Of a DNA stretch of 64,000 nt, positions 6,331-64,000 are shown piece after piece (position 1 is the first letter of the stretch; each line of letters starts with the position of its first letter). The position numbers and the translations under genes are program-made. This DNA is from Octopus vulgaris (taxonomy: Eukaryota), in the NCBI GenBank assembly GCA_951406725.2, contig OX597827.1:52018001-52082000 (forward strand), given 5' to 3'. The notes beneath the pieces were generated by a model, which saw only the letters and a list, made by a program, of their open reading frames with translations, made no database searches and was not told where the DNA came from.

Positions 6331-6501
6331 TACATATATATAGACTTGTTTTATTTATATTTCCTGAGCGCCATACTAATACAATTGTTTGTTTGTTTTC
6401 CACCTGCCTTCGTCTTTTGTCTATTTTCATAAAGCTTCCCTATATATATATATATATATATCATGCATATCATGCATCAATGTATTTACACACATACACA
6501 A

Positions 6502-24391: not shown

Positions 24392-25627
24392 CAGGGGTTG
24401 GACGAAATAACGGAAACACCTTAAAATTTCAAACAACTTTATTTTAATATGAGGTAGGACTGCCTTTGTCAGTAATTACACCTTGAATTCTATGAGGTAT
24501 AGACTCGTACAAAGATTGAATTGTTTCCAAAGGAATTTTTATCCATTCTTCAGCTAAAACAGTCTCCAGTTCTTGTAGTGATGATGGTGGAGGATATCGA
24601 CTTGTTTTTCTAAAATGCACCATAAATGTTCAATAATATTGAGATCTGGGGACTGTGGGGGCCAGGTATGATGTTCAACTACACTAGAATGTTCCTCGTG
24701 CCATTCAGTAACAACTTTAGCTGTGTGAATTGATGCATTATCATCCTGAAACGCAACCATAGGATGAATTTGATCAGATAAAATCCTTAAATAGTCTTGA
24801 CTATTAATTCTGCCATAAAGGAAAACCATTGGACTGGCGGATTTCCAAGATATACCCCCTCCCCCAGATCATCACGGAGTCTCCTCCATGTTTAACAGTT
24901 GGAAGCAGGCAGTCTGGGTCAAATGCTTCTTTTGGCTGTCTCCATACGTATACTCGGCCGGTGGTCAGAAATAAGGTAAAAGATAACTCGTCCGAAAAAA
25001 TAACATTCTTCCCGGGACCAATTCTGTAGGTTTTTACACCACTCTAAACGCTTTGCAACGTTTGTTTTTGAAAGTAGTGGTTTTCTGATTGCAGCCCTCC
25101 CGTGAAATCCGGCTTTATGCAGCTCCCGGCTAACAGTTTTTGTGGAAACTGAGTTCTCAAAGTGGTCATTAAGCTCTGCAGTAATTTTGGGAGCTGTACT
25201 TTTGTGATCCTTTTTAACAATTTGTGTAAGAATCCGATGGTCCCTATCTGTAAGTTTTGGTTTTCTTCTGGAGTTTTGTTTCGACGAGAAGAGTTTTCTC
25301 TCTTTCTCAAAGGCTATTATTACTTTCAAAACTGTACTTCTTGATACACCAAACATTTCGGCTGTTTCGGCTAGTTACGCTAGCGCCTGCCATACGAGCA
25401 CCAACAATTTGACCTCTTTGAAAGTTAGATAAATCTGTCATTTAAATGAATTTTAATTACCTTTTTCTGATGATATCTGAAAAGAAACAGTAATTCTAGC
25501 AAAACATATTAAGCAACACTAATAATAAATATAAAAAAACATAAAAATAAACTTTTACGGTTTTATAGATATTTCAAAATTATAATGCTATGATGCTAGG
25601 TGTTTCCATTATTTTGTCGAACCCCAG
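24392..25627 (-). mobile_element. Tc1-like DNA transposon with TIRs and a frameshifted transposase
   Basis: TIRs caggggttggacgaaataacggaaacacc / ggtgtttccattattttgtcgaaccccag, then TA on the right. Transposase starts MTDLSNFQRGQIVGARMAG at 25441 and has the DD34E-type QDDNASIH...WPPQSPDLNIIEHLW. Confidence 0.92.
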
Positions 25628-44000: not shown

Positions 44001-46090
44001 GATAGCAATGAGAGACGATATTGCTACAGTAGCTTCGACGCTTTCGTAGTGTTCTTGGTAGATGGATAGTCAACTTTCAAATCAATTTCTTCATCTCGCC
44101 ATGGATAGTAAAGCATCAACAGGTTCCTGTATCTGCCTTCTCCTTCCTTCTTTTCTTTGTGGAACCTTATGATGCAGTGGCAGAGCGATAACTTTCGCGA
44201 GTTTGTCTGCAATTTCTTCGGTATCTGAGTTATTGCCACCACCTTCGATGTCATCACATCCGTGTAAAACATCAGGGACATGGTCAGCTGCATCATCAGG
44301 AGTATTTTTTCCCTCCAATTGTGTAAGTGGCTGAAAACTCTGCAAAGCACATATCTTCGAGGATATCAGGTAGCATGGCATAGCGGTCAAGGGGTGATAT
44401 ACAAAAGATATCTTCATCGTCTTCGTCCATACCTTGTAGGATCTTCTGCGACTTAAGCATGGATACACGTTTGTCTTTTGGTGCAGTGTTGATAAACACC
44501 ACTTTTCGACTGGCCCTCTTCAGTGGCAGAGAGAGGATCCTGTAAGCAGTCTCCTGAGCACTAACTTCCCTGTTGTTCAGAAAAACTGATCCTACTTTTC
44601 TCAGTTTTGATTTCAAGTCTTCACCTCTGCTTTCTTCAGTTACTTTTCTCAGCAGTTCACTCATAGTCCTCTCACTTTTCATCATGTAACTGGTGATGTA
44701 CATGATGCACGTGTATAGGTCCATGATGAACTGAAGGTCAATGTTGGCACGCCAGGTTTTGCTGATCTTCGGATTATACTGGTTGATCCACCTTTCTGAA
44801 GGTTGACGCTTCAATACCACCTATTTCCCCGATTTCACTAGTTTCACCACACCCTGGTATTCCTGCAGGTTGACATCAGCCTTTTGCAGGAAATCTTCGA
44901 AGGAAGTATCCTCGGGAACGTCCTTGTCTTCCATGACATCGCTGACTTTTTTGAAGATATCCGCTTTAGCGTTGAGTATGAGCTTTGCAACCATAAAGTC
45001 ATCTACGTCAGGCTGGCGAGCAATCACGGTTTCAGAAGAGGGTTAATGAGGGAAATGGAATCTGCATGATCCACCTCTTTGGCATGTTGCTGAGTGCACA
45101 TGCTTCTGAAGAGAGAGAACGACCTGTCTCAAATCGCTCTCTTCTTCCCCTGGAATGACACACGTCTAGTACTGGTCAATGAATGTCGCGATTTCTTCAT
45201 CAATATTCACATCAAGTTTCGACGCATCTTTTATCCATAAAATGGTGTGCGCGTGTAGACAACTTCTTGCCTGAAACTCCATGCGTATCATGTAATCTAC
45301 TAGCACGCCAATGGGATGTGCCCTTCCACCGATGAACTCTTTGAAGAATATGTCCAATCTGTGTTTGAATTGTCGGGCTGCTGTAACTGGGTTGCATCTG
45401 AGCCAGTTGTACTTTTGCTCCCACGGCATTTTCTTGATGTCATCAGCTGTCAGCTCTTTTCCATACTGATGAGCTATACTCTTGATGACTTCTGGCCACT
45501 GCATGTCAGCTGCTGACAGGGTAAGGAACCACGTGGGAATTTCAAGTTGCCGCACCATGGCAAGCAAATCTAGCAATACAGTATTCCAGTATGCAGGAGA
45601 ACCTCGAATGTCCTTCATGAACTTGAAAGCGGCGTCGGTGCGAAGCATAGCCGGAACATTTTCAGTGATCTTCATAAGTCCTGCATTTACCTTTCTATTT
45701 TGAAAACGTCTGTCCTCGTGTCTGCCTCAGAGATATTTGAATATCATCGCGGACCTGCTTGGCTTCTATAGCATACTGGGCTGCAAGAAGGTAGTCAATA
45801 TTGCTGGCAACTCTCCCGTCTTTGTTCAGTAGCCGCTGATTGAAGTATTTTCCTGGCGTTATCTTCTTTTCTCTCTCCTCAGACAGTCCTCCACGCCCAA
45901 GAGGATACTTGGAAGAATATGCCAGCTCTTCAACGTTTCTGTCTGTGAGTAAAGGGCAGGACTTTTGGTTTTCCTCGCAGAAAACGTGGTAGCACCGTCA
46001 GCTACCTGTTCTTCTTGCAGCAATGTGTCATATGGAATGCCTCGCAGTTTGCTTGTCTGCTCAAGTGAATCCTGTCTTCCTCATCTTCCA
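41090..46090 (-). mobile_element. Helentron (Helitron with Rep, Pif1 helicase and AP endonuclease), degenerate and interrupted
   Basis: Rep: IRGSPAYW, PTWFLTLS, EFQAR..LHAH, YITSYMMK. Helicase: GDLYQLQPV, QFPLSLAWGCTIHKVQG, YFALSRV. Endonuclease: DVFCFVET, IVLGDFN. Confidence 0.93.
42891..44020. mobile_element. Unclassified ~1.1-kb insertion splitting the Helentron
   Basis: The Helentron reading ...YESVEATVA resumes as NEAMFSVNA... across it; composition shifts to AT-rich. Confidence 0.6.
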
Positions 46091-46622
46091 GCACTTGCTT
46101 TACATATATATATATCTTTGTTTTTCTTTTTCTTTCTTTCCTTTATTCCTCTCTTCCCGTTTCTTATTTTTTTCATTATTTTATTATTTTCTTCTTACTT
46201 TCTTCTTCTCTTCCTGTTTTCGATTTGACCCTACTAATACACTCCCTATTTTTAGGTCACTTTAAATAAAACCCTTGATTCAATAACACTGGGTATAAAT
46301 TCTATACTTGGAATGACCAATTTTAAATACTATTGGATTTTACTCATAAGGTATTGGAATCTTATCTGTATACCATTCTGCCTAAAAAAATGGATCTACA
46401 AATACAATATCCTTACACATCTCACATCTATTTTCTCTCCTCCACCTCACTCTCTATTTTGTATCTTACCTAAATTAACTATTACTTAACCATCCTCTCA
46501 CACCGTCTCAAATGAAAGGATAAATATCCTGGAAACAGCTGTAAGACCTTCTATCTATAAATGTTCTAAAATCTACACAGCCTTGGTTTTTTATCTCATT
46601 ACAAAAAACAAAATTTTATATA
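46090..46622 (+). mobile_element. PLE-like terminal repeat remnant with a degenerate hammerhead (46505-46548)
   Basis: gtct-caaatga-a-aggata aa tatcct-g-gaaa-cagctg-ta-agac. Confidence 0.5.
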
Positions 46623-46623
46623 T

Positions 46624-47600
46624 ATTTCATTTCATTTCATTTCATTTGAGTTTGAGTCCATGCTCAGGCCAAGTCGAAGACTCCACCCTCAGAGTCTGGT
46701 GTGGTTGCCAGGTTGTATTCTCTGTTTAATTTTGACATGTGTAGGAGTGAGTTTGAGTCAGTTTGTGCTCGTTGTGTATATCCTGGGAGATGAGGCTCAT
46801 CTCTAATGGTGCTTAAGTATCTATCCAGCTGCAATTTGAATGATTCCACACTGCATCCTGATAGATTTCTGACATGTACCGGAATGGAGTTGAATAGTTG
46901 TGCTCCTCGAACCAACAGACTTGACTCTCGCAGGGTTTTTGCTGCCTGGCCAGCCTTTTTGTTGATTAGTGGTAGCTGGCAGCGTCGTCCGTGGCGCAGT
47001 GAGTGGTAGGTTTTGATACCAAAGTTTGACACCTTTTGCTCTATCATTTTCCAAATGTATATAATTCGGTATCGCTCAAATCTTCTTTCTATTGAGTACA
47101 TCTTCAAGGTTTTGAGTCTTTGCCAATAGTCCAGGTCCCTCGTTTCTGAGAAGTATGAGGTAAAATTTCTTTGGAGCGATTCCATCTTAGATAGTTGGCC
47201 CTTTGTTGTTGGTGACCACAACTGAGAACAGTAGTCAATCCTCGGAAGTATCATACTGTTCCAGAGGGTTTTCAATGTTGAGGTATCTCTTGATTTGAAG
47301 GTGCGCAAGATCCACCCGCTGTACTTTCTTGCAGTAAGACAGACTGAGTCAAGGTGTTCTCTGAATTTTAGGCTGGTTCCCATGTGGATGCCTAAATCTT
47401 TCACATACTGTTTTTCCATTATTTGTTGTCCTGATGGGTTTCTGTAGTTTGTTGTATTTTTCAGATCTTGATCTGTTCCGTAGCGAATTAGTTCAAACTT
47501 CTTATCATTGAACAACATGTTGTTTGTTTCCTGCCATTTATATATGGTGGTCAGGTCCTTTTGTAAGGCCTCTGTATCCACCTCGTCTTTGATTATATTA
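46624..47600 (-). mobile_element. 5'-truncated CR1/L2-group LINE with an open ORF2 C-terminus and a (TGAAA)n tail
   Basis: 313-aa ORF with LQKDL..IYKW...NNMLFN..K, KDLGI and PRIDYCSQLWSP; tail at 46624-46648. Confidence 0.9.
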
Positions 47601-49990
47601 TACAATGTATGTATATAACCTCATATATACACATGCATATTTATATACATCAATGCATATGCATACATATATGTGTGTATGCATGTGTGTGTGTGTCTGT
47701 CTGTACCTGAGTGCATGTTTGTGTATGTGTGTGAATGTGCATGTACACATGTTTGTTTACATTTCTTAGTTCGATGAAATCAGTGTTGTTGAACAATGTC
47801 CTAAATATATATATATGTTATGTGAACAATAATATTTTCAAAACAAAAGAATTTAAAACTTAATAGTCAGAATAATTACAAAGTTGAAAGAGAATAGTAA
47901 AAAGGGCAAAGGACTTTATTTTCAATGTATAAGAAATTCAATTAACTTAAATTGCAAAATATTCATCAGCCAATTTGGAAGTACCTATAACTATGGTTCT
48001 TGCAATGCTTAATCCACATACCATAATGAATTAGTACAGAATCAAATTGTCTTATTAAGTTAAAAATCATGAATGTTTAAAAAGTTGTTGTCTTGATCAG
48101 ATGTGCAAAGGACAATTTTAGGTTGATAACATGTGTGACAGAAAAATGTTAGGCATATGTCTGGTACACTTATACAAGTGGAGAAGTATACTAGAAATGC
48201 AAGATAATAAAGGAGGTAACCCTAACCCTAACCTTTCTCCTTTGAAATGGTGGAAGTGAGGGTGATGGTTGTTAATCATAACACACAGGTCAATACAATA
48301 TCACTGGCAGGTACCTCCGATGAAATTCATGTTGTTTCTATCAACTCAAGCCAGACTCATGGTTTCCCCACATTTTATTCTTATGCAGCAACTGACCAAC
48401 AGAAGTTCAGACTGAAACATCACCACATTAGTCTCACCAGTCTGATTTGGGTCTGAAATGATTATGGCCACTACTTCTTTCTTGATTTAACCTAAAAGCA
48501 AAGAGCGGGTTGTTGGCAGAGGAAAAGATTGTTCCTTATGAGGATAGAATACGTGATTGTATGTTTCCACAGGCAGAGGTAGATCATCATAAACATGGAA
48601 AAATTTAAAAGTTTAGTGAGGATAAGGGCTGGCCTAGTAGTACACTGTCTGAGGATAGTGAAAGGATTTGTTGCTTAAGCCTAAAATGCTATGTAACATA
48701 CACATCATCATCATCGTTTAATGTCTGCCTTCCATGCCGATCTACTTCAATTACATTTCCATATACTTATGTCATCTGCTCAAAAAACAACTGACAAATG
48801 GTCTTGTTCTCAGTTAGGAAAATGGCAAAATACATTATTTCAACCAGGAAACCCTGAGTAGCTGTATTTAACAAGATTTCTGGTCTTTTATTATAATATG
48901 AACAGGTTGCGGTCTTAAAGCGACGAAAATATTTTGACAAATTAAACTTAAATGTTGAAGTGAATCGAACAGCTTTTGTGTGTTTCTTAAATGGCTTACA
49001 AACACCTTCCATGCTGCAATTGTTTTTGTTTCAGCACACGATCTCAGATCGAATCACTTGCTATGCAAGTACATCTCCGTAATATCTTTACTCTCTTAGC
49101 TGATTGAGTGCTTTTCTACTTGTTGAAGCCTTAACAAATAATACTATACATATGAAGCCCCTACAAATCCCAATACAGTCACCAACTTCATCCTAGGCAT
49201 CACTATTGTAAATACCACAGTATTGTTAATAATTCAATGCCAAATCCAGTAATAATAATTGTAAATAAACTTGTTTCACAACTTTGTGGTTTGGAGTTCC
49301 ATCTCACCACATGATGCCTTGAGTGTCTTCCATCATAACTTCATATTAACTAAAATATTGCAAGTGAAATTTAGTATAGGGAAACTGTGCAAAAACCCAT
49401 CAAAAGGATCATTCTTGTTTTGCAATTGTAGACTTAATCTGTCACTCAGTTTAACTGCACCACAAAGCCCAGAGATGCTTTTAGTAGAGTCCACTCACAT
49501 GCAATTTTTTCAAGCCAAATACCTAGTCTGAGAATAGCTTATTCCTATCAGTCTCAAAGGCCCTGAAGGTGATTGGTACAATCCTTCCTCTTCCAACTAA
49601 ATCATAATTTTTTTTATAAAAAGGAGACATGTTCTAAACACCATTCTTTACAGCCACATAACCAAACACTGCATTGTATATAAACTGATATTCAATATAT
49701 CAATGATAGAAGTCCTGCCAGCTACTCCTAACAGCTGATCAGCCACTTCTCCATACCATAGATTTATTTGAGCAGAGGTAACCGATATTACTTAGTGTCA
49801 CGTTCTAACTGCCATACTGCACATTATTAACATACCCTGACTGTCACATTGCATGTCCCACAACCAACCACTGTGTATGGTGTGGTCCAGACTAGATTGA
49901 AGTATGTCTAGTTGAAAGGGTATGTAAGCTGCTGTCAAGTATTTCATAGGTTACCTCAACAGGTAGTTACTTAGAAGCAACTGGCTGGAG

Positions 49991-51340
49991 TTAGTGAATA
50001 ACAGCACCTGGATCAACAACATTAGTTTCTAGATCAATATCATTTGTAATCATATTGGTAACAGTAGCTGGATCACATACATTTACCTGTAGGTTGGTGA
50101 TGTTGGTATCTGAATCAGTGATGCTGGGACTAGGATTGATGATATTTGTATCAGGATCAGAGACACCAACTTCTTGATGAGTAATACTTGATTCTGATCC
50201 AGTAACATTTTCACTCGGATCAGTTGGATTATCAACAGGATTGACGACATCAACAACTGGGACAGTGAGATTGGTCACAATGGAATCTTGATTCACATCA
50301 TTGTCATTAGAAGTAGTAACAGTAACATGTGGAGCAGTGACATTAATACATGAATCAGCAACTGAGAAATTTAGGTTTTTGATTGAGTCACACGGATCAA
50401 TAACACCTGGATGAGTAATTGAGGTGCCAAGATCAGTAACATCTGCATGAGTGACAGCAATACCTAAGTTTGTAACTGGGACACAGAGATCAGTGATTGG
50501 GAGGTTGAGGTTATTAATAACAACACCTAGATCAGTCACAGTGACACCAGAGTTCGTAATAGTGACACTTGATGCTTCACTGACTGGCACATCCAAACCA
50601 GAGATAACAACACCAAGATTATTTACAGCAGCAGTTGAATCTATAACACTTGTTACAGCATTTGAATCCCTGACCGGAACACTTGTATTATTAATATTAG
50701 AAACATCTGGATCAGAGGTAGCACAGTTCATGTCATCAGTTTGAGTATCTGGGTTTGAGATAACAATTGGATTAGTATCAGAGTTCTCTGCACTCACATC
50801 CATCATTGTAACACCAGGCTGAGTGACAGTAGAAAGAGATGGTAGATAGCTAGATGGTGAATGATTCTCTTCAAATTGGTCAGAGACAGGAACAGGATTC
50901 TCAGGAGACAGCATCCAGGAAGAGGAAGTTGAGAGAGGTTCAGTAGTTGAAAGTTTTACACCAAGTGTTGACTGAACACTTGGTGATGAAGATTTGGTAT
51001 CACTGCAGCAGGTCCAAGAGAGTGTCTCATTGACAGTATCAACAGCAACATTTGACTCACAAGTGGTTTGTACCCTTGGTGACTTAAGTTTGGACAAATG
51101 AGTGTCACAGAGTAACTTTAGTTCTTCCATCTCCAAACAGACAGCAACTGTTCGCAACTGAGTCAAGATCTGTGGGTCAACATCTAGAATACCATTATAC
51201 ATGTAATCAGCAAAAGCATCCAGAGCAAGCTGGCTGATCCTTTTAGGGAAATTGACCCGCAGGAATTGACTTGAGGATATATCAGCACTTGGCATGGAAA
51301 GCAGTTTGGGACACATTGCCAACAAGACCACCTTGTGAAC
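49991..51340 (-). CDS. Coding exon 6, BTB core (VHKVVLLAMC...FADYMYNG...LEMEELKLLC) plus T/V/D/N-rich repeat tail
   Basis: ORF 49991..51331 (446 aa, uninterrupted); HKxVL and YMYxG BTB motifs; acceptor ttttcctag. Confidence 0.9.
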   Translation of the reverse strand, partial: VHKVVLLAMCPKLLSMPSADISSSQFLRVNFPKRISQLALDAFADYMYNGILDVDPQILTQLRTVAVCLEMEELKLLCDTHLSKLKSPRVQTTCESNVAVDTVNETLSWTCCSDTKSSSPSVQSTLGVKLSTTEPLSTSSSWMLSPENPVPVSDQFEENHSPSSYLPSLSTVTQPGVTMMDVSAENSDTNPIVISNPDTQTDDMNCATSDPDVSNINNTSVPVRDSNAVTSVIDSTAAVNNLGVVISGLDVPVSEASSVTITNSGVTVTDLGVVINNLNLPITDLCVPVTNLGIAVTHADVTDLGTSITHPGVIDPCDSIKNLNFSVADSCINVTAPHVTVTTSNDNDVNQDSIVTNLTVPVVDVVNPVDNPTDPSENVTGSESSITHQEVGVSDPDTNIINPSPSITDSDTNITNLQVNVCDPATVTNMITNDIDLETNVVDPGAVIH

Positions 51341-52523
51341 CTAGGAAAACAAAAAAATGAAGAAAAGTAAATATGCATATACACATGTTCTTTAGTTTGT
51401 TTTAGCCATCATGGCCAAGGCTATGCTGGCTCTAAAATGTATATAAAATATAGAGAGAGAAAGGGAGGATGTGCATATTGCATGCATGACAGAGTTAGGA
51501 ACAAGCCCCAAATAATTATTTGCTATTTAATCAGGAAGAAAAAACATAAAAGAAGCCTGTTGAGAACTGGAAACTACATAATAAAATTTCAAGGATTCCA
51601 ACATCTGTAGATAATACTCTGGTGCTATTTGATGAAGGTTTTGCTATTTCTAACATGTAAGCAAGTTGATACTCCCTTGTTGACTCAACTTTGTGCAACA
51701 AGATTCAAAGATGCCAGTATAATAAACCTGTATACAAACATATAATATGTAGTTCCAGATTCATTGACCGGGATGGTCATGGCTCAAATGATTTTAATCA
51801 TAGATCTCCTTAGTCTTAATGGAGCAATTGCATTTTTATAAAGCAATAGCAGTATCGCCCGGCGTTGCTCGGGTTTGTAAGGGAAATAACTATATAAGCA
51901 TTTTTAGAGAGTTACTTCCCTTATATAAACCGAGCAAAAAATGCATTAAAAAAAACGAAAAAACGATGGTAAATTTTTTTTTTAATTGTAGACTCATCGT
52001 AGACGCGCGCTAATACTCAGAAGGGCTCAATATGAATCACAATTATAAGATACCCGCTTTTGGTTAAACTGCACTGCAAAATGTGGGAGTAGTTAGGAAT
52101 CTAAATCGGAGGAGACAGACTCTCACACAACTTCAGTTTTATATATAAAGATATGTGAACTGCACTCTGCAAAACCAGATAAATATATCAGAGACCATCA
52201 TGAATGCAAAAATGTCATTATACTCACCACTCCAATCTTCATATTGCCAACTTACCATTATTGTAGCATTCTCATTACCAATGCCGGCATCACAGAATTT
52301 GCCATCTTTCCAAAGCAATGCAAGGTTGTGCAACATACTGCGTGGATGACTTGCAACAATGTACACCTTCTTCAGTCGTTGTGGCTGCTCATTTCTATCA
52401 TCACTGCAAATATTGGGTGTTTTTTCTTTAATAATATATTTATGGTTGTACAAGAATATAAGTGTGAAAAAGCATAGTGTGTGCTGAATTACGTATGATT
52501 TCAATAGCTAGGGTGCACACACC

Positions 52524-52564
<41 letters not shown>

Positions 52565-55500
52565 CTACTTGGTACATCTTTTATTTCTTTAGAATTAAAC
52601 AAATAAGGAACAAAACTCTTCCTCTAAGTAGGACACTGGTCCATCATAAGCTGAGAAGAGATAGAAATAGTGGTAATAAGGTGACTGGGTGGGCCCTCAA
52701 GGTATGCAGTAGAAGTGAATGGGGAGAGGGAAACCAGGACTGTAGGTGAGTAGAGGTTGCAAGAGAGTATTGGAGAGTAAGTGATGGGGAATGGTGAATA
52801 AGTGTTGAGGGATGGATGTAATGAATGGTGAATAAGAAGGGTCCAATGATGTAGGAAGGTAAAGAACAGCAGAATAGTCAGTAAAGTAAGCAGGAGGAGT
52901 AGAAGGATGAGAATGTAGCAGCACACTGATGCTGCTGGTACAGAAGCCAAATCCTTTGCTAGTCTTAACCCCTTGCTCCAACTTCTTTCATCCCCTACTC
53001 ACATTCCAAACCAGCACACACCCCCCACCAAACATTCTCAATATCATTTTTATCTCTAAGGCAGCAACCTGGCAAAAACGTTAGCACACCAGGCGAAATG
53101 CTTAGCAGTATTTCGCCTGTCCTTACGTTCTGAGCTCAAATTCCGCCGAGGTTGACTTTGCCTTTCATTCTTTCAGGGTCAATAAATTAAGTACCAGTTG
53201 CAAACTGGGGTCGATCTCTCAGAGATAATTTCTCTCTAGATGAGGTCCTCCTCTCCTTTAAAGAATGATCTAACCTCTTTGAAAACAATTTCTTCCTTTC
53301 ACCCTTTAGCATTCAGATTACTCTATTAAATATAATGATCATTTCTTCATATTGTTTTGAATTAATCATGCATTATCTCACAGCTTTGAGATGTTGAAGA
53401 TATAGTTGTTTATTTTTAGAATGACATTGTAGGATAAGTGTAAGAGGCCAGATCTGACTGTTTTAAACATAAAACAGCCAGAATCATCATCTTCATCATC
53501 CTTTAATGTCTGTTTTGCATGTTGGCATGGGTTGGATGATTTGACCAGAGCCAACAAGACAGAGAGCTACACAAGGTTCCAACCTGATTTGGCTTGGTTT
53601 CTATGGCTGGATGCCCTTCCTAATGCCAACCACTTTACAGTGTGTAGTGAGTGCTTTTAATCTGACACTGGCATGAGCACTTTATGTGGCACTGGTATGA
53701 GTGCTTTTAAGCAGTACTTTTAGCCAAATATGGACAGTTTAAATGCTAAAGAGATAAATAATGTACTCTTCTCGAAAATAGAGCTCCTATCAAAAGTAAG
53801 ATTTGTTCTGTAGACAACAATCCCTCACACATTTTACACAAGATCATATTAAGCAAAAATGATTTCCATCACAATAAATGAAAAAACATAATTCAACAAA
53901 CCTATTCTGAAGTTTACCAGACACTTTTTCATGTTGACTGGAAGAATCTTCTCTAATCGTTGGTGAAATCTGAGATGTTGCACAAATCTGCTTTCGCATC
54001 TTACAAGACTTCTCTTCTTGTAACAAGTCTGAAGACAGAGACAAATTTGGGGACACTGCTACAGCAAGTGATGAACTTTGTCTTGTTGATATAGTGTTGC
54101 TTTCACATCCCATAGCTGACTTTTTGGCATTTAGATCTTTACAAACAACATTATTTACAGTTGTATTATCCTTTGAAGCCAATGTAAGCTTATTGTTTGC
54201 AGCTGCTTCAGACAGGTTAGCAGTAAGTGTACTGTCTGGTACATCAAGTACTTTCTGACTAGATCCAACGGCTGTCTGAAAACAACATAGAAAGACAACA
54301 AGGTAATGGTGTTAGTAGGAGAGGTTAGACAGGTAAAGGCAGAGGATGAAATATTGTAACTGAATAAATCAGGGGATGTTAAGTTAAGAGCAGTTAAAAG
54401 TACTTAGGAACAAGACAAGAGATGGTGAAAAAATGAAAAAGCAGAAAATGAAAAAATTGAAAAACACGAAAAAGAGTGAACAGCTGAGAATTTTGGTCAG
54501 CACATTATGAAAAGAATAACTTGTGTCCTTGGATTTTATACTGAGATGTCCTAAGATGTAGCTTTTAATTGCATCCTGTAAGTTCATCCAGGGTATATAT
54601 ATCCTGCAAGATTTTTCACTGCATTAGATAAACACTTTTAACTATCTAATAATTATGCCCAGATTTTCAAATGATGCATGACTCACCTTTGCCACAAGTA
54701 GTAACCTAACCCAAAATATTGCAGTACACAATAATAGGGCGGGGGTAAAGAATTCAATAATAAAAACCAAGTAAAAATGGATAATGAAATTAATATTGAT
54801 TTCGGATTTTGGCACAAGGCCAGCAAGTCCAGGGGAGTGGGTAAGTCAATTACATCAACTCCAGTGCTCAACTGCTACTTATTTTATTGACCCCGAAATG
54901 ATGAAAGACAAAGTCAACCTTGATAGAATTTGAACTCAGAACATAAAGACGGACAAACTGCTGCTAAGCATTTTGCCTGGTGTGTTAACGATTCTGCCAG
55001 CTCACCGCCTTAATGATGAAATTAATATTAATAGTAATTATATGAGAGGTGGTAATAGCAACTATGCACATATATTGAATCTAAGGGGATTATAAACAAC
55101 CAATGACTAACTACGTGAGTGAAAACAATGAACCTACAATAGACGGTGTAAGGGAGATAACTGAACCCAGACCAGACATTTAAAGTAACTGTAAGAAATA
55201 TTGAATGTAGTAATAGACAAAATTTAGTGTATAGTCAAACTAATAATACTAGTGGGATAACAAGTAATGATATAGACGAGATACCTAATTCTTCTGCCAG
55301 TAGCAAGCATAGGGTTAATATCATCAAACATTTTTATAGCTGAAGAGCTGCCCAGGTTCCATGTCTGTTTAGGCATGGTTTCTATGGCTGGATGCTCTTT
55401 CTAATGCCAACTGCTTTACAGAGTGTACTGGGTGCTTTATGCAGCACTGGTACGAGAGCTTTTATGTGGGACCAGCACAGGTGTTTTTTACATGGCACCA

Positions 55501-58500
55501 GCACCCATGAGCCTGCAAGATTAGGATTGCTCAGCTGAAGAGGGGCATAGGGACATGCCTGTATGCAAAGATAATCATGATTTCACTTAGATTGATGTGT
55601 CTTCTCAAGCACAAGTGCTTCAACTCATAACACTGATAAAATATACCGTCTAATGATAGCTATTTAGTTAGACAGACTGAGTTGTTGAGGATTAAGTGCA
55701 ATACAAGTGACACAGTGCATTTCACCTACTTTCATACCTTTTGAACTCAGACATTTCCTGCTCTAAAATATTATCTTTTATCAAGTGTCAACTACACAAA
55801 TTTATTGATATAACTCCATTGTTCTGGTTGAAAGTTCAAAGTTAACATACCAAAGTTTTGCCTTTCGGAACAGAAGTCGTTGATTTTGTTGCATTCTTCA
55901 ACTGCTGTTTTTCCCGGCGGCGTTGACCACTAACACTCACCTTTTTCTGCAAAAAATAAATGACAACATAAGGATAATTAGCAATGTTTTAGATTGACTT
56001 ATGAGGAAGTTACTGTGTAATCTGAACAAAGTGTTGACCATATGTTATGAGATTAAGTAGTCATTGATCTGCAAAATTAGAATGGTTTAACTGGCTTCTT
56101 TTATGAAGGCTCAACATGATATGTTTCAAACAATTGTCTTAACTATAATCCAGCTTTACATCATGTTCCTTGCTAAGCAGCTAAAGTTTTTTTGTTTCTT
56201 TGTTTTTTTGTTGTTTTTTTTTTTTCATGGTTTAGTCAGAAGAGAAAGTGAATATCCTTGACTTATGTAGGACCTCTGGCATTGGTAGAAGAAAAAGAAG
56301 AAACCATAGCTCATCTGTTGTTGCAGTAGATATCATATTATTTATCTTCAAGCTAAGGACTTAGCTCAAATGCTTGCAACAGTGAGTTTCACTAAAGGTA
56401 TCCAAGAATCAGCTGGGGTGTTACACTGGATAATGCATCACTTAGAATTTATATCCAAACGAGCGGAGAGAAGCTAGCAGCAATAATTCATTTAAGATTG
56501 TATTTCAATCTAGGTTCTGCTTATTTTATTGAAAACTAACAGAAATAAAAGTACTTTAAGACATGTGATAATCGTTGTGGTGGTAGTGGTGGTAATAGAA
56601 CAATGCTCTGTTGTTCATAACAGTGCTATATGTTTATTAGAACTGTGTTGGGTAGGCGGCAGAAATGTTGGCACGCCGGGCGAAATGCTTAGCAGTATTT
56701 CATCTGCCACTACGTTCTGATTTCAAATTCCACCAAGGTCAACTTTGCCTTTCATCCTTTTGGGGTCAATTAAATAAGTACCAGTTATACACTGAGATCG
56801 ATATAATCGACTTAATCCGTTTGTTTGTCCTTGGTTGTCCCCTCTGTGTGTAGCCCCTTGCGGGCAGTAAAAGATAAGAACTGTGTTGGGTAGAACACAC
56901 TTGATGCCCAGAGTAAAACAGTAATACAACTTAAACCCAAACACAAATGGCCTAAATATTTTCATGCAACTAAAGATCTTTACCACTAACAATCAAGTAA
57001 TGTATCAAACCAATGAAGAAACTTCTACATGGTCACTCAACTTGCAAGAATTTCCCTTACATCACACCCTACCACCTTCTTAAAAAGAAAGAATGCACTA
57101 AATAATGCAGTCTTAGACCTATTCTACAAAAGCAACAAGATGCCTTTGACTGACCAGGACAAAAAACAACACTGGTGTATATAATTCCCAAGATTTTTCT
57201 ACTCTTGTATATTTATGCTATTAAAAGTGACTTTAATAATATTTAATGTTCTATGGTGTTATTATTAGGTGTTATATAGAGTCTGTTCAAGGCCAGATTT
57301 CAATGTGATCTATATTGTATTGGAATAGTTGTACTGCTTAATATGGAGAATAGTAGAATGAGATAACTGTGGTGTTTTCTGCATATGAATCTATGTGCAT
57401 TTTATAAGTATGTTAAAACACATTGTGCCTGAAAAAAAGAGAGAATAATTAGTTAGAAAACCATGAGTTCCTGTAGTACAAAGGACAAAAATTCTTTTAC
57501 CTTAAACTCTGGGAACAACTTCAAATGAACTCTTCAATTGCTAACTTGAATTTGCAATGCAACTCAAAGATCCTCACTATCCCAATGCACCAGCCAGAAG
57601 CTGGAATATGCAGAGACTCCAGCTGCATGTTAATTCCATCTAAGCCCCTCAGCCCAAAAGAGATGCCCTTGTCATTTGCCTCCATTCTCACGAGGCCTCC
57701 CCACAAATATTGGCAGCTTCCCAGCCTGTATGACATAGTACATACTTGTTCAGCTCCCAAAAATCCAGACTTTATTTTTCATTGACAGAACCACTGCCAT
57801 CATTGGCAACACACTGCTCTTTACCTCCTCTTTCCAACACATCAAGATACCTTCTACGATCCATCTGTTCCCCTTCTCTCTCAAACTTTCTCTGGCCTTT
57901 CTTTTCAATATATGCTCATAGCTGGCCTTATTTCTCAATGTCAGGGATCCTCCCTTCCAGAACCATTTTGGTGCACATCACTTGCCAGCAAACTCAATCT
58001 GGAAATCATAACTTCGATTCTATCAATGGCATTCCTTTCTTTAGAGTTCAATCCATCGATCCCACAGCCATAATTTTCCACTGCATGCTCAGGTGAACTC
58101 AGCAATTGAAAGTTAAGTATTTTGGTCATGGACACAATGCAAACCTTCCAGCATGTTGGCTGAACCATCCAATACCTCACTGATTCAGCTAATTGTTCTC
58201 TCTACGAAATATGTATCATAGTAACCAAAATGAATAAATAATCTATCTTGTCACTCACTCATCTGATTGACATGAAATGACTCACAGACATAATTTAACC
58301 TCTGACCTACAGGTGAACTGTCTCCTCTCTACCTTTTCTATCACTACTGTAATGGCCTCTGTTCTTCAAACTTGACTAGCTTTGTACCTCCATCAGATAC
58401 TCCCAACCCAATCATCGTTCCACTTCATCAACTCCCATCCTAAGCCCTATGCTTAGCCTTCTTCCTCAGAATACCATTCTTCTGAAATATCCACCCTGCT

Positions 58501-60220
58501 TATGTCTTTCCTTCAGGTGTCAACTTGCAACACTTTAAACAGCATATTATTGGCATCAATCTCACTAGTATTGGAAAGCCTATTAAGACCATCGAAACAG
58601 CTGCTTCTAGACCCAGGAGAAAAAAGGAAAAAAAGCACGATATAATCACTGTAGTTGACTATATTCTTGTACAAATGATAAAAATATACAAACACTCCCT
58701 TACTTTCATATGTGGTGGAAAATCAAAGATCGATGGAACAGCACCATCTCTAAGGCGTGTCGTTTGTCCAGTCCGGTCAAAACATTCTTCCGTAAAATGC
58801 TCACTACACAGGTAGGTTTTATGCTCTGGTACCCAAATTTTACCATTCACTTGGTACTTGAGGGCATATGCCCACTCTTTTCTTCGTTTCAAATCCTTAG
58901 GAAAACTACAAATAGAGAAAGTAGTTGCAAAAGGTTAGAAAAACTGAAGAAAAGGAAGGCAAATGAACAAGAGCCTCTTATATGAATCAGAGAAAAGAAA
59001 TATATTAAGGGAGATAACTTGTACTAGGAGGGAATAGGAACCAACCGCAAAGTAAACAAGTGAAACTAGACAGTCAAGTTAAAATAAAAAGCAAGTAAGT
59101 AGCGAGAGAGACAAAAGGATTAAATATAAACCTTCAAGCAACTAAAAATAGCTGAAAGATATTATTAATCACATGTTTAGAGATCAGAACATTTTTAATA
59201 ATTAAATCTATTCTACAATCAGTCAGATCATCAATCATCATTGGATGCCTTATTACTGGATACTCTTTTACTTGTTTCAGTTATTTGACTGCGGCTATGC
59301 TGGAGCACCGCCTTTAGTCGAGCAAATCGACCCCATGACTTATTCTTTGTAAGCCTAGTACTTATTCTATTGGTCTCTTTTGCCGAACCGCTAAGTTACA
59401 GGGATGTAAACACACCAGCATCGGTTGTCAAGTGATGTTGGGGGGGACAAACACAGACACATAAACATATACACACACATACATAAATATATACATATAT
59501 ACGACGGGCTTCCTTCAGTTTCCGTCTACCAAATCCACTTACAAGGCTTTGGTCTGCCCGAGGCTATAGCAGAAGACACTTGCCCAAAGTGCCACACAGT
59601 GGGACTGAACCCGGAACCATGTGGTTGGTAAGCAAGCTACTTACCACACATCCACTCCCCTGCCTTTATACAAATTGATCTCAACTAGAATCCTCTATTT
59701 CATAATTAATAGTAAAAACGTTCTTAACCAGTAGTTCACAGATGTTTCTACACTAGTTACAAAATAAACATTATCTACATCAGTTTAGAAATAAAAATTA
59801 CTTGTTCAAATTCAATTTGATATTATTTCCTAATCCAGAGGTAAGAAATTTGATAATGTGTTGAGATCATTATCAGGTATCTTGTTTTTGGAAGTGTTGA
59901 GGTGACTATTAAAAATAATTTTTCAAATAGTCTAAAAATTTAATCTTAACAATTCATCTCATACATTTAGACATTGAGTGGTAAGTGTTAATAAAAACTA
60001 CCCAAGTATAAAAATACTTGCTGAAACAATTCCTGTAGAAGTTTAAAATTGGGAAATCAGGCAACCAATTCTACAATAGAATAATTTAAAATTAGCATAA
60101 ACTGTATGAAAACAAAATGAATATTCCAAAGCATACTGACCAGTGAAATGTGATGCCTTGCTCACGTGCTTTTCGGTCACTACGATGCGTACATTTATAT
60201 GCTGCACAGGATGTTGGCAT
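49991..60220 (-). CDS. Spliced gene (6 coding exons, 2250 nt, 749 aa): THAP zinc finger - linker - BTB/POZ - 7-aa-repeat C-terminal tail
   Basis: Hand-built model with exons 60220-60141, 58905-58704, 55946-55851, 54275-53902, 52403-52256 and 51340-49991. All introns are GT-AG with pyrimidine tracts, phases are compatible (2,0,0,2,0), and there are no in-frame stops. Confidence 0.8.
51846..52152. mobile_element. DINE-1/HINE-like non-autonomous Helentron-type element in the BTB intron
   Basis: Starts ..tagcagtatcgcccggcgttgctcgggt (hairpin) and ends ttttatatataaagat. Confidence 0.65.
52256..52403 (-). CDS. Coding exon 5, BTB N-terminal part (HPRSMLHNLALLWKDGKFCDAGI...IM)
   Basis: BTB-type HxxxLLxxLxxLxxxxxFCD pattern; acceptor ttgcag and donor GTAAGT. 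Confidence 0.88.
53058..53216 (+). mobile_element. SINE family B (intronic)
   Basis: Shared core. Confidence 0.85.
53902..54275 (-). CDS. Coding exon 4, Ser/Thr-rich linker
   Basis: Extends ORF 53844..54182; acceptor ttttcag; the weak donor AG|GTTTGT supplies the phase 2 needed by the next exon. Confidence 0.7.
54795..55012 (-). mobile_element. SINE family B (intronic)
   Basis: Shared core in reverse orientation. Confidence 0.85.
55851..55946 (-). CDS. Coding exon 3, basic linker (KKVSVSGQRRREKQQLK...GKTL)
   Basis: 96 nt, phase 0/0, acceptor ttttttgcag, donor GTATGT, open frame; the basic stretch could be an NLS (inference). Confidence 0.75.
56655..56876 (+). mobile_element. SINE family B (intronic)
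   Basis: Shared core. Confidence 0.85.
58704..58905 (-). CDS. Coding exon 2, THAP C-terminal half (FPKDLKRRKEW...LCSEHF...LRDGAVPSIF)
   Basis: ORF 58659..58892 carries the conserved P, W, CSxHF and AVPTIF-box residues; acceptor ttgtag and donor GTAAGG. Confidence 0.93.
59265..59663 (-). mobile_element. SINE family A, full length (intronic)
   Basis: Reverse complement of the 26849-27226 type. Confidence 0.88.
60141..60220 (-). CDS. Coding exon 1, THAP N-terminal half (MPTSCAAYKCTHRSDRKAREQGITFH)
   Basis: Matches the THAP start MxxxCxxxxC...FH; acceptor ttgcag at 60261-60266 and donor GTCAGT at 60140. Confidence 0.9.
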
Positions 60221-61228
60221 AACTTTATCTTACTCTCCCAGCTGCTGCAGCTAGACTCATCTGCAAATAATAATAATAATAATAATAATACTGATAACAA
60301 TGATTTCTTACAGTGTCACAATATTCAAATTAGTAGGGAAGGAAGTCTAGTGAACTAAATCTACAAATAGTAAATGACTGGCTAGATAAAAGACTATGAC
60401 CCAAATTACTCTAAATCTCGAACTGAGCAAGTAACCCTATTTAGACAGATGGACAAGAATAAGTGGCATGTAAACAACACAATTCAGACAAACAATATAT
60501 GAAGTGTAAACAGATAAGGGAACTTAATGTCTTTGTCAACATGAGTTGACCAATTTGTCAACAACCTTTTATTCATGAAACACAAAAATCAGATTGGGTC
60601 TTTTCTTGCAGGACTAACAAGAACAGCTCACTCAATGTTGAAGAAGTTGACAAATTCAAATTTGCCAAGTGATAAGACCGCAGAGGCCAAGAAAATGCCG
60701 AATACTAGTTACTTGATGGTTTAGTCAGAAGAAATAAAACTGACATTTGCAAGACATTGTGGACTAGTGAAATCGATACAGTTTATGTTGAACTTGGAAA
60801 AATTTTTGTTACCAGTTTTCATGTTTCATACAACTGCAATTACAATTCTGAAAAACTTCATGATATTTTTCTTTCTATTACACCCACTTCGCTTGCAAGG
60901 CAGATGTAAAAGTAAAACTTACTGGGAAAAGAACAGAATTGGGAAGAGCAGCATGCTAAAACGTAAAATACTGAATTTTAGGACAAAAAATTCTTTCATG
61001 GAAGGAAACAAACACCTTGCCTTTTTTTCTTTCTACATGAGGTAGTGATGGCTATTCCAAAAGTCCACCAATCAGAGATTACAATCATCTCACAAGATGG
61101 ACGTAATAGTAAAACTTCACCAACTTTGGGGGGGGGGTTTCTGGTTTAAACATTCCATATAACCCCTCATAACTTATATTTTGGGGGAATTTTCAGAAAA
61201 TGTTTGCGAATTTCTGTCTTACACACAG

Positions 61229-61977
61229 GAATTCATACGATTATACCAGAAAAAATACTTTTTGTGTATCTAGCACATCTCACGACCACTTGATACCTTC
61301 CTCGTTTCTTTGTCACTCTAACAATTATTGATGTTTTTCAATTTTTTTTCCCTATAAACACATTTAATGGAATAATGATGTACCCAAGGGTGGTCCATTG
61401 TTGGAATTTAAGCAAAAGATTCGGTCTGTCCGTATTTGAAACTTTGATTTTTTTTTTTTTTAATCGAAAAGAGGGGAACTTTTAGGATTTGTGGGAAGGA
61501 TGGTTAAAATTTTTGGCAATCTTTCGTCTCTAGTAGACCTTTCCGTCAATTTCCGTAAAAAATTTTTTTTTTTTTACATATGGGCTTGCGGGAACTTTTG
61601 AAGTAATGAGAGCGAAAGAGACTAAGAGAAAGCGATTGTATGACGAGGGAAATTCTTTTGAAGTTACCGTGCATGGGAAGCATTGATGTACATGTGTGTG
61701 TGTGTGTGTGTGTGTTTGATGGGGTGTGGGAGACAGACAGTATGTTGTGTTAGTGAAGTGCTTCTGTTAGTGTGTGTGAAGAGACAGAGTAATGTGTGAA
61801 AGAAAAAGATAACTGGAATTTTTTACTCGGTGTATGTGTATATGTATGTATATTACTTCAAAAGTTCCCGCAAGCCCATATGTAAAAAAAAAATTTTTTT
61901 ACGGAAATCGACGGAAAGGTCTACTAGAGACGAAAGATCGCCAATTTTTTTTTAATAGCATAATCGTATGAATTCCC
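61229..61977. repeat. Foldback-like element with ~93-bp inverted arms (61513-61607 / 61852-61944) and short outer inverted repeats
   Basis: Arms are reverse complements with few mismatches. Confidence 0.85.
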
Positions 61978-62460
61978 ATGTATAGAACACAAATACGCTT
62001 ACAAGAGGTAGTGGATGCCCGATGTGAAACACAACGGTAAACATATTTTAAAATAATCATTTCTTTGCGGTTTAAAATTTTTTTTCTTTAATTACTAAAT
62101 TTATTGGCTAGAAAGTAGAATACTTTAGAAATAAAAAATACACTGACTTGATAGATTCTTCTTTTCGATAGTATTAGACTTGCAAAACAACTTGGAAAAA
62201 ACCGAAGATTTAGAACCGTAAACAAACATAGCCACACGTTGAACAGGAGAATTACCGGAAGTGTAATATACTCTAAATTATCTATCTCCAGTATTGAAGA
62301 ACTTAGCCAAATTCGTCTGCTTTCAGTTATACTGTTACGGTTATTAATTATGCCAATACTTCGCAAGGGAGCGCTTGCTAAATGTAGTAAATATTCCTTG
62401 TGTATATGTCTAATTGTTTTTGTTGTAAGACAGTAAAATGAAATTGTACAACTTTCTTAC

Positions 62461-62600
62461 CGTTTTAGACTCTTCCTTCTTCAGCTTTCATGTACTTGAC
62501 GAAAGTTAATAACAATGATCTTGATAAATACAGGTGACAATTCCAGACACATTTTTGTCTTATTGAAGCTCTTAGGCGAAACAAATTTTTCCTACTTGCG
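62461..62600 (-). other. Candidate 5' UTR exon of the THAP-BTB gene
   Basis: Donor ACG|GTAAGA at 62460 in non-repetitive sequence upstream of the acceptor at 60261; the 5' boundary is a guess. Confidence 0.4.
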
Positions 62601-62834
62601 AGATAAGGGAAAAGTGAACTAGTATATTCACGTACAATAATGTATACGTGTAGGTGTCAAAAATTGCCCAGAGACGCAATCTTCAGTCACAATGATGATA
62701 TTTAACACATCATGTACATTATTGTACATTAATATAATGATTTCAAATTTTGCTACGAGGGCAGCAACTTTGGGGAGGGGATGAGTCGCTTGCATCAACC
62801 CAGTGTTCAACTGGTACTTATTTTATCGACCCGC

Positions 62835-63285
62835 TGGTAACGACCACACTTGAATGGTGCCCTTTTATGTGCTACTGGCACAGAAGCCGGTTAGCCGCTC
62901 TGTCAACGATCACCCTTGTATGGTGCTCTTTGCACCCCACTAGCACAGATGCCAGTCGATGAATTTGATTTTGATTTTGATTTCACTTGCCTCAACAGGT
63001 CTTCACAAGCAGAGTTTAGTGACCAAAGAAGGAAAAGGTATGCATAAGGGGGCTGGTTACGCTCTTGGCGTAGGCCACAGGTTATGGTCTCATTTCATAG
63101 GCCACAGATTATGGGTCTTCTCAAGCACAGCATATTTCCAAAAGTCTAGGTCGCTAGTCATTTCCTTGGTGAGGCCTAATGTTTGAAGGTCGTGCTTCAC
63201 CACTTCATCCTAGGTCTTCCTGGGTCTACCTCTTCCACAAGTTCCCTCAACCGCTAGGGTGTGGCACTTTTTCACACAGCTATCA
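62835..63285 (-). mobile_element. RTE-like LINE 3' end
   Basis: Minus strand reads GRPRKT*DEVVKHDLQTLGLTKEMTSDLDFWKYAVLEKT; related UTR-like pieces lie at 53490-53720, 55330-55620 and 63370-64000. Confidence 0.75.
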
Positions 63286-64000
63286 ATATTAATAAATTTT
63301 ACTGCTATTTCTAGCATGTATGACAAAATTTATTGAAGTCAGCAAACTGCACCAATTCCTGCTGTTTGCATTGATATAATTTCTATGGCTGGATGGCTTC
63401 CTATGCTAACCAATTTACAGTGTACAGGGTGCTTTTTACATGGCACCAACAGCAGTGAGGTCACCAATTAACTTACAAGACTTCTCAGTTGAGGTGGGGA
63501 GTCGTATTGAGGGACACAAAAAAAAGAGTCTGGCATTTGAGAGGAAACGTGGCTACCTCAGGTGGAGAGACAAGAGAGAGAAGACAGTGAAGATATAACA
63601 GGAGAGAGAGTGAGTGAACCAGGGATTATCGAGGGTGTAAGATTGCAAAAGGAGAATAGGGGGGGGTATAATGAGTGGTCAAAGGTAGAGAGAATATGTT
63701 GGGAGGAAAAAGGTTCAACAGGAACATACTGTGTGCTAGTAGGTATGTGAAGGAGAACAGAGGGGAATACAAAGGATGGAAAGCATGGGAAAGAAAGGGT
63801 GTTGGGAAGCTGGGTTGTGGAGGTGGTTTGTTAGGGAACAGACTGTGTGTAGGAGGTGGGGAGGCATGGACATAAAGGGCATGCCTTTATGGCTCGATTT
63901 TACTTAGCTGGGTGGGTCTTCTCAAGCACACAAATCATCAGTTGTCTTGGTCCTTTGTCATCTCCTCTGTGAAGTTCAACATCTGAGGATCATTTCTCAC

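Follow-up and report, generated by a model that had tools for sequence, protein, structure and literature searches.

How does a finger of the kind that transposases use to bind DNA come to stand in front of a BTB domain in an octopus protein, and is such a protein a solitary fusion or one product of a process that has run many times? The window considered here is a stretch of 64,000 nucleotides of Octopus vulgaris DNA (contig OX597827.1, positions 52,018,001 to 52,082,000), and it holds a gene, hereafter the THAP-BTB gene, in which a THAP domain is joined to a BTB domain and a repeat tail. Plain coordinates below are positions in this window; G000 denotes the source genome, in which the gene lies on C14. 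We consider it probable that the THAP-BTB gene encodes a spliced protein, likely a dimeric transcription factor, and that it is a single-front member of a coleoid family that combines a constant BTB part with likely alternative, transposon-derived first exons. The interpretation first given to it, of a lineage-specific regulator whose BTB serves a THAP finger, is partly supported by the evidence described here; what that interpretation missed is that the gene is probably no solitary fusion, belonging instead, as a fixed member, to a family with exchangeable DNA-binding front exons.

Structure and transcripts of the THAP-BTB gene

The gene has six coding exons on the minus strand, with a GT donor and an AG acceptor at all five introns, and these exons join into a coding chain of 2,250 nucleotides, that is, 749 amino acids and a stop codon, with no internal stop. 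A first-pass annotation, made from the letters alone, had claimed that the THAP and BTB exons share one spliced frame of 749 amino acids and had named the junctions 58704/55946, 55851/54275 and 53902/52403; the six-exon chain bears out the frame, and all three junctions lie where they had been placed. The O. vulgaris protein CAI9733027.1 (749 amino acids) was identical to our model when the printed sequences were compared, and its protein cluster also contains the orthologs from O. sinensis and O. bimaculoides.

A non-coding first exon at about 62255-62148 (minus strand, 5' end approximate) was recognised by eye through its match to the 5' end of the O. bimaculoides ortholog complementary DNA (cDNA) in a printed supplement; it has a GT donor at 62147 and sequence depth in 4/4 runs. 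The gene therefore starts beyond the interval 49991..60220 first given for it, which holds as the coding part and fails as the gene extent. The next exon (60141..60260, minus strand, as are all that follow) lies behind an AG acceptor at 60261 and carries 40 nucleotides of 5' untranslated region (UTR), the start codon (60220) and the beginning of the THAP domain, with C5 and C10, before a phase-2 GT donor. Exon 2 (58704..58905) supplies the rest of the finger, including W38, C60, H63 and an AVP-type box, matches the Pfam THAP profile (E 1e-12) and is found in contigs X11-14 and X2-27. Exon 3 (55851..55946) has phase 0 at both ends, appears as a 96-nucleotide gap in two contigs and encodes a basic linker whose basic clusters make it a candidate nuclear localisation signal. 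A Ser/Lys-rich linker, predicted to be disordered (predicted local distance difference test score, pLDDT, <50), is encoded by exon 4 (53902..54275), which is exact in three runs and partial in the fourth. The BTB domain begins in exon 5 (52256..52403; contig X2-27) with an N-terminal strand and helix 1, the dimer extension (strand 264-266 and helix 270-282 in the model). Exon 6 (49991..51340), the last coding exon, belongs to a 449-residue open reading frame (ORF) and holds the BTB core (residues 301-386), a Ser/Thr region, an acidic tail of 7-residue repeats and the stop codon. The 3' UTR (47962..49990) is represented in contigs X11-14, X2-24 and X2-25, with AATAAA signals at 49768, 48892, 48379 and 47920; it reaches at least 49056 on one contig and probably about 47960.

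Transcript support comes from assembled contigs of 4 of 24 runs (X1, X2, X11 and X16) placed on 44500-64000; the runs are only guessed to be RNA, and the contigs are assemblies rather than single molecules. In run X11, a single contig of 3,266 nucleotides holds exons 2, 4 and 6 in order, with gaps of 96 and 150 nucleotides that fit exons 3 and 5, and one contig of run X2 holds exons 2, 4 and 5, including the 96-nucleotide gap. Spliced contigs of two of the four runs thus bridge the THAP and BTB exons, with the introns skipped at the predicted borders, so that the joining of the two domains in one transcript, as first claimed, agrees with these RNA-like data. Among the listed pieces, run X16 bridges exons 4-6 only, and run X1 gives fragments.

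Two further features of the transcript may be mentioned. An upstream ORF of 11 codons (60260-60225, minus strand), which ends just 5' of the main start codon, recurs in the O. bimaculoides cDNA and may exert translational control. Where O. sinensis isoform X1 has a 12-residue insertion, the O. vulgaris gene offers no AG.

Domains and the type of BTB

Pfam detected two domains in the 749-residue model and nothing else: THAP at residues 5-87 (E 7.8e-17) and BTB at residues 281-384 (E 1.6e-08). The THAP finger contains all of its signature residues (C5, C10, C60, H63, P29, W38, F64 and P84) and the AVP-type box; binding of DNA by way of the zinc finger is established for the THAP family, and zinc-dependent, sequence-specific binding is predicted for the octopus protein from its residues. 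In human THAP1 and THAP2 (PDB 2d8r and 2jtg), the same C2CH finger is found with all signature residues. The HCF-1 motif D/E-H-x-Y of human THAP1/3/7/11-type proteins is absent from the 749-residue protein and from its Argonauta ortholog, as are a C2H2 pattern and the FxLRWN motif of TTK-type BTBs from the former. Pfam found no BACK, Kelch or MATH domain in the model, and no catalytic RNase H-like core of the P-element/THAP9 type after the THAP. The first-pass annotation had anticipated most of this: a complete C2CH finger over two exons, a BTB domain placed in reversed order behind the DNA-binding domain, the lack of an HCF-1 motif, C2H2 fingers and Kelch repeats, and a repeat tail.

A 7-residue period runs through the tail (z 7.2 against 300 shuffles); the tail of the main paralog, used as a control, lacks it, and Tandem Repeats Finder detected no DNA repeat in the region. 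Its conserved heptad core (residues 561-595; 50456..50560, minus strand) has the same period (z 5.6-7.2). The tail has no confident fold (mean pLDDT 33) and no match in the Atlas; a beta-solenoid is no more than a candidate shape for it. As for a coiled coil, the model shows no helix past residue 386, where confidence is <50.

In the structure model of the whole protein, the BTB alone is well folded, and the THAP is poorly modelled because the alignment mixed unrelated N-termini. The BTB model has an N-terminal strand-plus-helix extension, in which the exon-5 residues make up the predicted dimer interface, and no 3-box; the last BTB helix ends at residue 386, and confidence is low after 390. 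These are the hallmarks of the dimerising ZBTB type, and the extension and the lack of a 3-box/BACK are shared with PATZ1, ZBTB8A and BCL6. The octopus protein differs from those factors in gene order, its BTB being internal and its DNA-binding domain coming first and not as a C2H2 array. Human THAP proteins dimerise by coiled coils, according to the accessible part of PMC13631171, whereas the octopus protein is predicted to do so via its BTB.

It has also been proposed that the BTB recruits Cul3, in which case the protein could be a DNA-tethered ubiquitin ligase. Sequence and fold matches of the domain include the BTBs of KLHL, SPOP and KEAP1, and an Atlas search with the BTB returned generic BTB clusters only. 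A Cul3 adaptor would have a 3-box/BACK after the BTB and a substrate domain; the part of PMC11426971 that deals with the matter names the 3-box/BACK as the Cullin3-binding part, and the model neither continues in helices beyond 386 nor contains a BACK, Kelch or MATH domain. Because an N-terminal strand and helix are modelled and nothing like a 3-box/BACK follows, dimerisation is likely and Cul3 recruitment unlikely on the model, and we regard the ubiquitin ligase as a very improbable account of the protein. Of the roles first suggested for the BTB (dimerisation, corepressor recruitment and Cul3 recruitment), dimerisation is retained as a prediction and Cul3 recruitment is not.

The BTB of the THAP-BTB protein and that of the main locus described below were predicted to form a heterodimer (score 0.83 against 0.07 for the best control; contact agreement of at least 95% between runs; partner pLDDT 85), a mark that 39 of the 65 solved eukaryote pairs lacking a like complex attain, as do 2 of 126 unrelated pairs. 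Given that solved BTB dimers exist and that close cousins tend to pass, the prediction speaks for compatibility and no more.

Conservation in octopods

The Argonauta ortholog keeps the THAP, the BTB and the heptad core, which are 84%, 82% and 80% identical, respectively; elsewhere identity falls to 31-34% (31% in the linker, 32-34% in the tail flanks of the heptad core). This contrast points to selection on those three parts. THAP-BTB orthologs were found in octopods only, in keeping with the lineage restriction that had been supposed at first.

A coleoid family of BTB loci

Searching the genome with the BTB half gave 23 matches in G000 among 30 scored candidates. Twelve lie in tandem at C3:148.96-149.17 Mb and five at C3:151.27-151.38 Mb, with single matches on C2, C14 (the THAP-BTB gene), C23 and C24 and two on C15. 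In 22 of the 23 loci, an acceptor stands right before a V/I-H codon, forming a phase-0 intron (locus L009 is the one without it). The family is defined by its BTB, by this intron and by a transposon-type front domain, and the THAP-BTB gene has all three. Front domains across the family include THAP, FLYWCH, CENP-B/Tc5 helix-turn-helix (HTH), Psq, Brinker, DUF3504, CG-1, ZSWIM3_N/FAR1, STPR repeats and a whole Tc1-type transposase.

A protein search over 1.84 billion representatives gave 51 matches, of which 20 were looked up. The named clusters among these belonged to Octopus, Argonauta and Sepia pharaonis, apart from one distant gastropod BTB protein (E 7e-4; long branch in the BTB tree), and 11 of the 20 had no name. 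In the BTB tree (36 rows, none left out), the THAP-BTB gene and its O. bimaculoides and Argonauta orthologs form a clade (100/100), the sister of which was not resolved. The last exon of the THAP-BTB gene departs from that of its relatives: it is the only one of 22 loci without a SUMO-consensus (V/I/L)KxE site, having its acidic heptad tail where those sites stand in the family, and it lacks the C-terminal YPxxL-like motif present in 16 of the 22.

About 10 further BTB copies occur in the tandem array at C3:148.96-149.12 Mb, and the front ends of several resemble STPR repeats, a domain known from Helitron proteins as well.

The variable-exon locus on C3

The family reading is carried chiefly by a main locus at G000:C3:149,174,000-149,355,000 (minus strand), where ORF analysis, Pfam and isoform mapping place about 29 transposon-type DNA-binding exons (THAP, FLYWCH, CENP-B, Psq, Brinker and DUF3504) over about 180 kb, together with three shared exons arranged as a ladder and a constant BTB part. 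The RefSeq isoforms of O. bimaculoides LOC106877732, whose names run to X36 and of which 20 were compared, have the BTB part in common and different fronts. Aligned to C3:149.175-149.354 Mb, each of these fronts falls on an exon of its own (85-100% identity), always on the strand of the BTB and upstream of the three short shared exons and the constant exons.

Pfam was applied to 149 of the 160 filtered minus-strand ORFs of the interval, and 28 of these (20 above the curated cut-off) encode a DNA-binding or transposase-type domain: 12 THAP, 4 CENP-B/Tc5, 2 Brinker, 2 Psq, 1 FLYWCH, 3 DUF3504 and 4 others. None of the 123 plus-strand ORFs has such a domain in Pfam (Fisher P 1.5e-8). A phmmer search added 3, which brought the front-exon candidates to 31; the other 11 ORFs, as well as 97 minus-strand ORFs of C3:149.39-149.56 Mb, were covered by phmmer alone. 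In 26 of the 31, the best donor is in phase with the next shared acceptor (3 ties, 2 not), and the donor phase of the candidates switches from 0 to 1 and back in step with the ladder. For the 14 candidates outside the compared isoforms, 11 are in phase (P 7e-4 against one in three), and two of the junctions so predicted agree with isoforms in the supplement of PMC10027918. A Tc3-HTH ORF of Tc1/mariner type was dropped for its at least 154 genome matches, and a weak candidate without an in-phase donor was also removed, leaving about 29 front exons, 19 with a transcript model. This figure is a lower bound: every ORF had to contain an ATG, and 10-kb borders cut ORFs short.

The shared exon at C3:149,197,375-149,197,473 supplies the zinc-binding His and the C-terminal box to four front exons (three of them with isoforms) whose coding sequence covers just the first part of a THAP finger, and for other front exons it forms a linker. 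A homolog that is not split is located close by. In 5/5 isoform cDNAs inspected by eye, the 5' UTR runs into the DNA directly upstream of its own exon, although one of these UTRs is very short and another starts at an acceptor-like stretch. Order and spacing are the same in O. bimaculoides and G000 for 8/8 front exons compared, and one front exon is kept in Argonauta. The continuity of the 5' UTRs and the conserved order fit separate promoters and cis-splicing.

Exchanged fronts at other loci and in cuttlefish

Different fronts on one constant part are not confined to the main locus. Next to it on C3, a FLYWCH and a CENP-B front precede 490 identical C-terminal residues. A C15 pair has DUF3504 and FLYWCH fronts, and at G000 C15:71.43-71.50 Mb three FLYWCH ORFs, one weak CENP-B ORF and two DUF3504 ORFs lie upstream of the BTB. 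DUF3504 and THAP modules stand before one BTB at C2:173.12-173.16 Mb, and THAP and CG-1 fronts go with one constant part at C3:151.25 Mb. Further assemblies contain THAP and ZSWIM3_N fronts on one constant part, and assemblies that cluster with Sepia pharaonis proteins contain THAP and FLYWCH fronts before 698 identical C-terminal residues. The last two pairs are probably transcripts, because short contigs encode the whole protein; if so, the sequences suggest that the variable-front design predates the octopus-cuttlefish split. One paralog has incorporated an entire transposase: an intact Tc1/IS630-type ORF of 392 residues (C3:151,263,479-151,264,654, plus strand; single copy, next match 32%) is an internal exon of a THAP- or CG-1-fronted BTB isoform.

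Signs of recent capture and the question of purpose

The most distal O. bimaculoides front exon, a THAP, has no counterpart in the G000 locus and at least 22 dispersed G000 matches (56-83% identity, 13 with stops), which belong to a multicopy THAP-HTH-DDE_Tnp_4 element with terminal inverted repeats, presumably PIF/Harbinger-like. Of eight copies of the element that were examined, seven were aligned at a common left boundary region. Transposase domains (HTH_Tnp_4 and DDE_Tnp_4) are present in two copies, and two deleted copies of 1.15 kb have terminal inverted repeats (16-17/20 matches). From these sequences, the exon was likely captured recently in O. bimaculoides from a DDE_Tnp_4 element, and loss in O. 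vulgaris could be the alternative history. Where the missing exon would be expected in G000, there is a 266-bp match, but it reads as a tRNA-like short interspersed nuclear element head, is not part of the THAP element and was rejected as a trace. By contrast, close relatives elsewhere in G000 are lacking for the THAP of the THAP-BTB gene, for the captured Tc1-type ORF and for two older front exons that were tested.

Such captures could mean that the family chiefly serves transposon surveillance, in which captured domains would still bind the ends of the elements they came from while the BTB brought in silencing machinery; the THAP-BTB gene would then be an old, fixed guard against a P-type element. 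This is compatible with the family reading on structure and differs from it on purpose. The fronts do come from many DNA-transposon groups, one of them matches a multicopy element with inverted repeats, and one paralog keeps its single-copy transposase ORF whole. The THAP of the THAP-BTB gene and the two tested main-locus exons, in contrast, are strongly conserved without close dispersed relatives, which fits host targets better. We therefore hold surveillance as the chief role to be rather unlikely, with perhaps a modest chance of being right.

Origin of the THAP finger and points against the family reading

THAP exon 58704-58905 is single copy, with 3 genome-wide matches in G000 among 9 scored candidates; the only matches besides itself are the THAPs of two BTB-family loci, which have the intron at the same codon and in the same phase. 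The nearest non-cephalopod matches are fish THAP2/THAP6-like proteins, of which 3/26 have P-element transposase domains, and one THAP-hAT protein. The initial description of the finger as transposase-type is consistent with this company.

Several observations weigh against the reading favoured here. The THAP of the THAP-BTB gene shares about 55% identity (105 bits) with the fish THAP2/6-like and P-element-linked proteins, whereas the best of the family THAPs compared in blastp stops at 36% and 57 bits and the C24 paralog at 47% over 62 residues; the finger may therefore have been captured independently and not copied from a main-locus exon. The intron shared with the two family THAPs was rejected as proof of descent, because it is also at the position of human THAP1 intron 1 (c.71). 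The gene has one front module and so does not itself show switching; a second front exon is absent from its introns and from about 50 kb upstream, where 72 ORFs yielded only a mariner remnant about 46 kb away. At the main locus, the isoforms are RefSeq predictions from another Octopus species, the weak candidate dropped from the count had no in-phase donor, and the dropped mariner copy does have one, which means that in-phase donors also occur by chance. As to the BTB, the fold search does not separate ZBTB-type from KLHL/SPOP-type domains, the dimer prediction may reflect likeness to solved BTB dimers (close cousins passed 10 of 12 tool tests), and cells can block BTB heterodimers, as is stated in the part of PMC11426971 concerned with this.

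The origin of the finger thus bears on a second account, in which the THAP-BTB gene is an independent fusion: a family BTB copy that gained a P-element-type or host THAP2-like exon pair and never stood in a variable-exon locus. Beyond the THAP similarities, its location on a chromosome of its own, its clade without a resolved sister and its tail without the family motifs agree with this account; the two same-family THAPs split at the same intron, being the only other matches in G000, speak against it, as do a BTB sequence and a BTB intron that are those of the family. We regard an independent fusion as a real contender, short of an even chance; even if true, it would involve the same capture process.

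The chance donor likewise bears on a third account, in which the bulk of the front exons have no function, being chimeric transcripts started by transposons or annotation noise, and only a few fixed genes matter. The genome is rich in transposon debris, and one exon occurs in one species only. Noise would not be expected to keep open frames, order, spacing and 85-100% amino acid identity between two Octopus species, to leave a front exon in Argonauta, to show strand and phase bias, or to be mostly free of transposase catalytic parts; we accordingly find this explanation improbable.

A model for the family

The family reading suggests the following mechanism. Each variable exon would have its own promoter and be cis-spliced to the next shared acceptor, so that one gene would yield many regulators. 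Insertion of a transposon upstream would create a new front exon once the DNA-binding part of the transposon gained an in-phase donor, and duplication of the constant part with one front end would give fixed genes such as the THAP-BTB gene. In the protein, the BTB dimer may replace the coiled coil of ordinary THAP proteins and set two fingers on a bipartite site, and family members are predicted to heterodimerise. A bolder extension, which we advance tentatively and with somewhat less than even confidence, is that coleoids possess a standing exon trap: BTB loci would keep capturing THAP, FLYWCH, CENP-B, Psq, Brinker, Crypton-type and other domains as first exons under promoters of their own, BTB dimers would mix these into hundreds of specificities, and fixed genes would sometimes be spun off.

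Other elements in the window

The remainder of the window contains remnants of mobile elements. A broken Helitron lies at 41500-45750 (minus strand; Helitron_like_N E 4e-26, with helicase-like ORF fragments) and a broken Tc1/mariner element at 24550-25380 (minus strand; HTH_Tnp_Tc3_2 and DDE_3 in separate ORFs). Three ORFs at 28300-30170 (minus strand) look by eye like the broken remains of a hAT-type transposase whose N-terminus held a zinc finger; two that were tested gave no significant Pfam match. Fragments resembling non-long-terminal-repeat or Penelope-like retroelements occur at 46660-47620 (minus strand), 5200-6350 and 15600-16700, the first being covered by RNA-like contigs in 4/4 runs.

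Relation to known systems and significance

The THAP-BTB architecture had initially been taken as possibly novel, a view that has to be given up: the O. bimaculoides ortholog XP_014778534 is tabulated as THAP BTB in the 2023 supplement of PMC10027918, the consulted text of which notes that Octopus THAP and CENP-B proteins mostly carry BTB. In that supplement, 11 rows (one isoform twice) derive from LOC106877732, each under a separate gene name; the paper treats BTB as a transposon component, and the words 'isoform' and 'alternative' are absent from its main text, as 'isoform' is from its table. PMC10230085 concerns other BTB genes. The LOC106877732 isoforms stand in RefSeq as uncharacterised proteins. 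In the literature searched, coverage of which excluded most subscription papers and the supplements of cephalopod genome papers, the variable-exon organisation is nowhere described as one locus; it may have been described elsewhere.

The closest parallel is provided by mod(mdg4) and lola of Drosophila, which, as presented in the portions of PMC4667647 and PMC11426971 consulted, resemble the octopus main locus in having one constant BTB with about 30 alternative DNA-binding modules, FLYWCH among them. The Drosophila genes have an N-terminal TTK-type BTB and 3' variable exons, mostly of one domain class, some of which lie on the opposite strand and are trans-spliced, whereas in the octopus main locus the variable exons are 5', keep to one strand and represent at least six domain classes, and the BTB lacks FxLRWN. 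Exons on both strands with trans-splicing are not a feature of C3, given the 0/123 opposite-strand ORFs, and trans-splicing between alleles might still take place there. By analogy, the C3 system is likely a mirror-image, cis-spliced counterpart of mod(mdg4), with the many modules on one BTB that the single-module THAP-BTB gene does not have.

Vertebrate clustered protocadherin and UGT1 genes also splice variable first exons in cis to constant exons, these first exons being tandem paralogs of one domain. The octopus main locus differs in that its fronts are transposon-type domains with no relation to one another and in that it also has the ladder of shared exons, where one exon completes THAP fingers that are split. 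Host-transposase fusions, to which KRAB-transposase genes belong, usually involve one capture per gene, whereas the main locus has tens, as alternative fronts. As in the octopus, a transposase DNA-binding domain is spliced to a host effector in SETMAR and in the F-box-mariner and BTB-integrase fusions described in the consulted part of PMC12062965.

Taken alone, the THAP-BTB gene is a modest and already tabulated finding, a conserved octopod factor. Its family has wider meaning: some of the Octopus THAP, Psq and CENP-B 'genes' counted in the literature are isoforms of a single locus, and the stages of capture stand side by side in one lineage, from a free multicopy element through a one-species exon, conserved alternative exons and a whole captured transposase to fixed single-module genes. 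The origin of host factors from transposase DNA-binding domains is usually inferred from finished fusions, and the octopus stages make capture rate, selection and target choice testable. If the exon trap is real, it would be a convergent mirror image of mod(mdg4) that has still been gaining exons since the Octopus species split, and it could serve transposon control, chromatin insulation or the diversity of cell types in the nervous system. Cephalopods are known to diversify their molecules through protocadherin and C2H2 expansions and through RNA editing; a variable-front BTB system, if true, would add another such device, and the mod(mdg4) design would have arisen twice, with opposite polarity.

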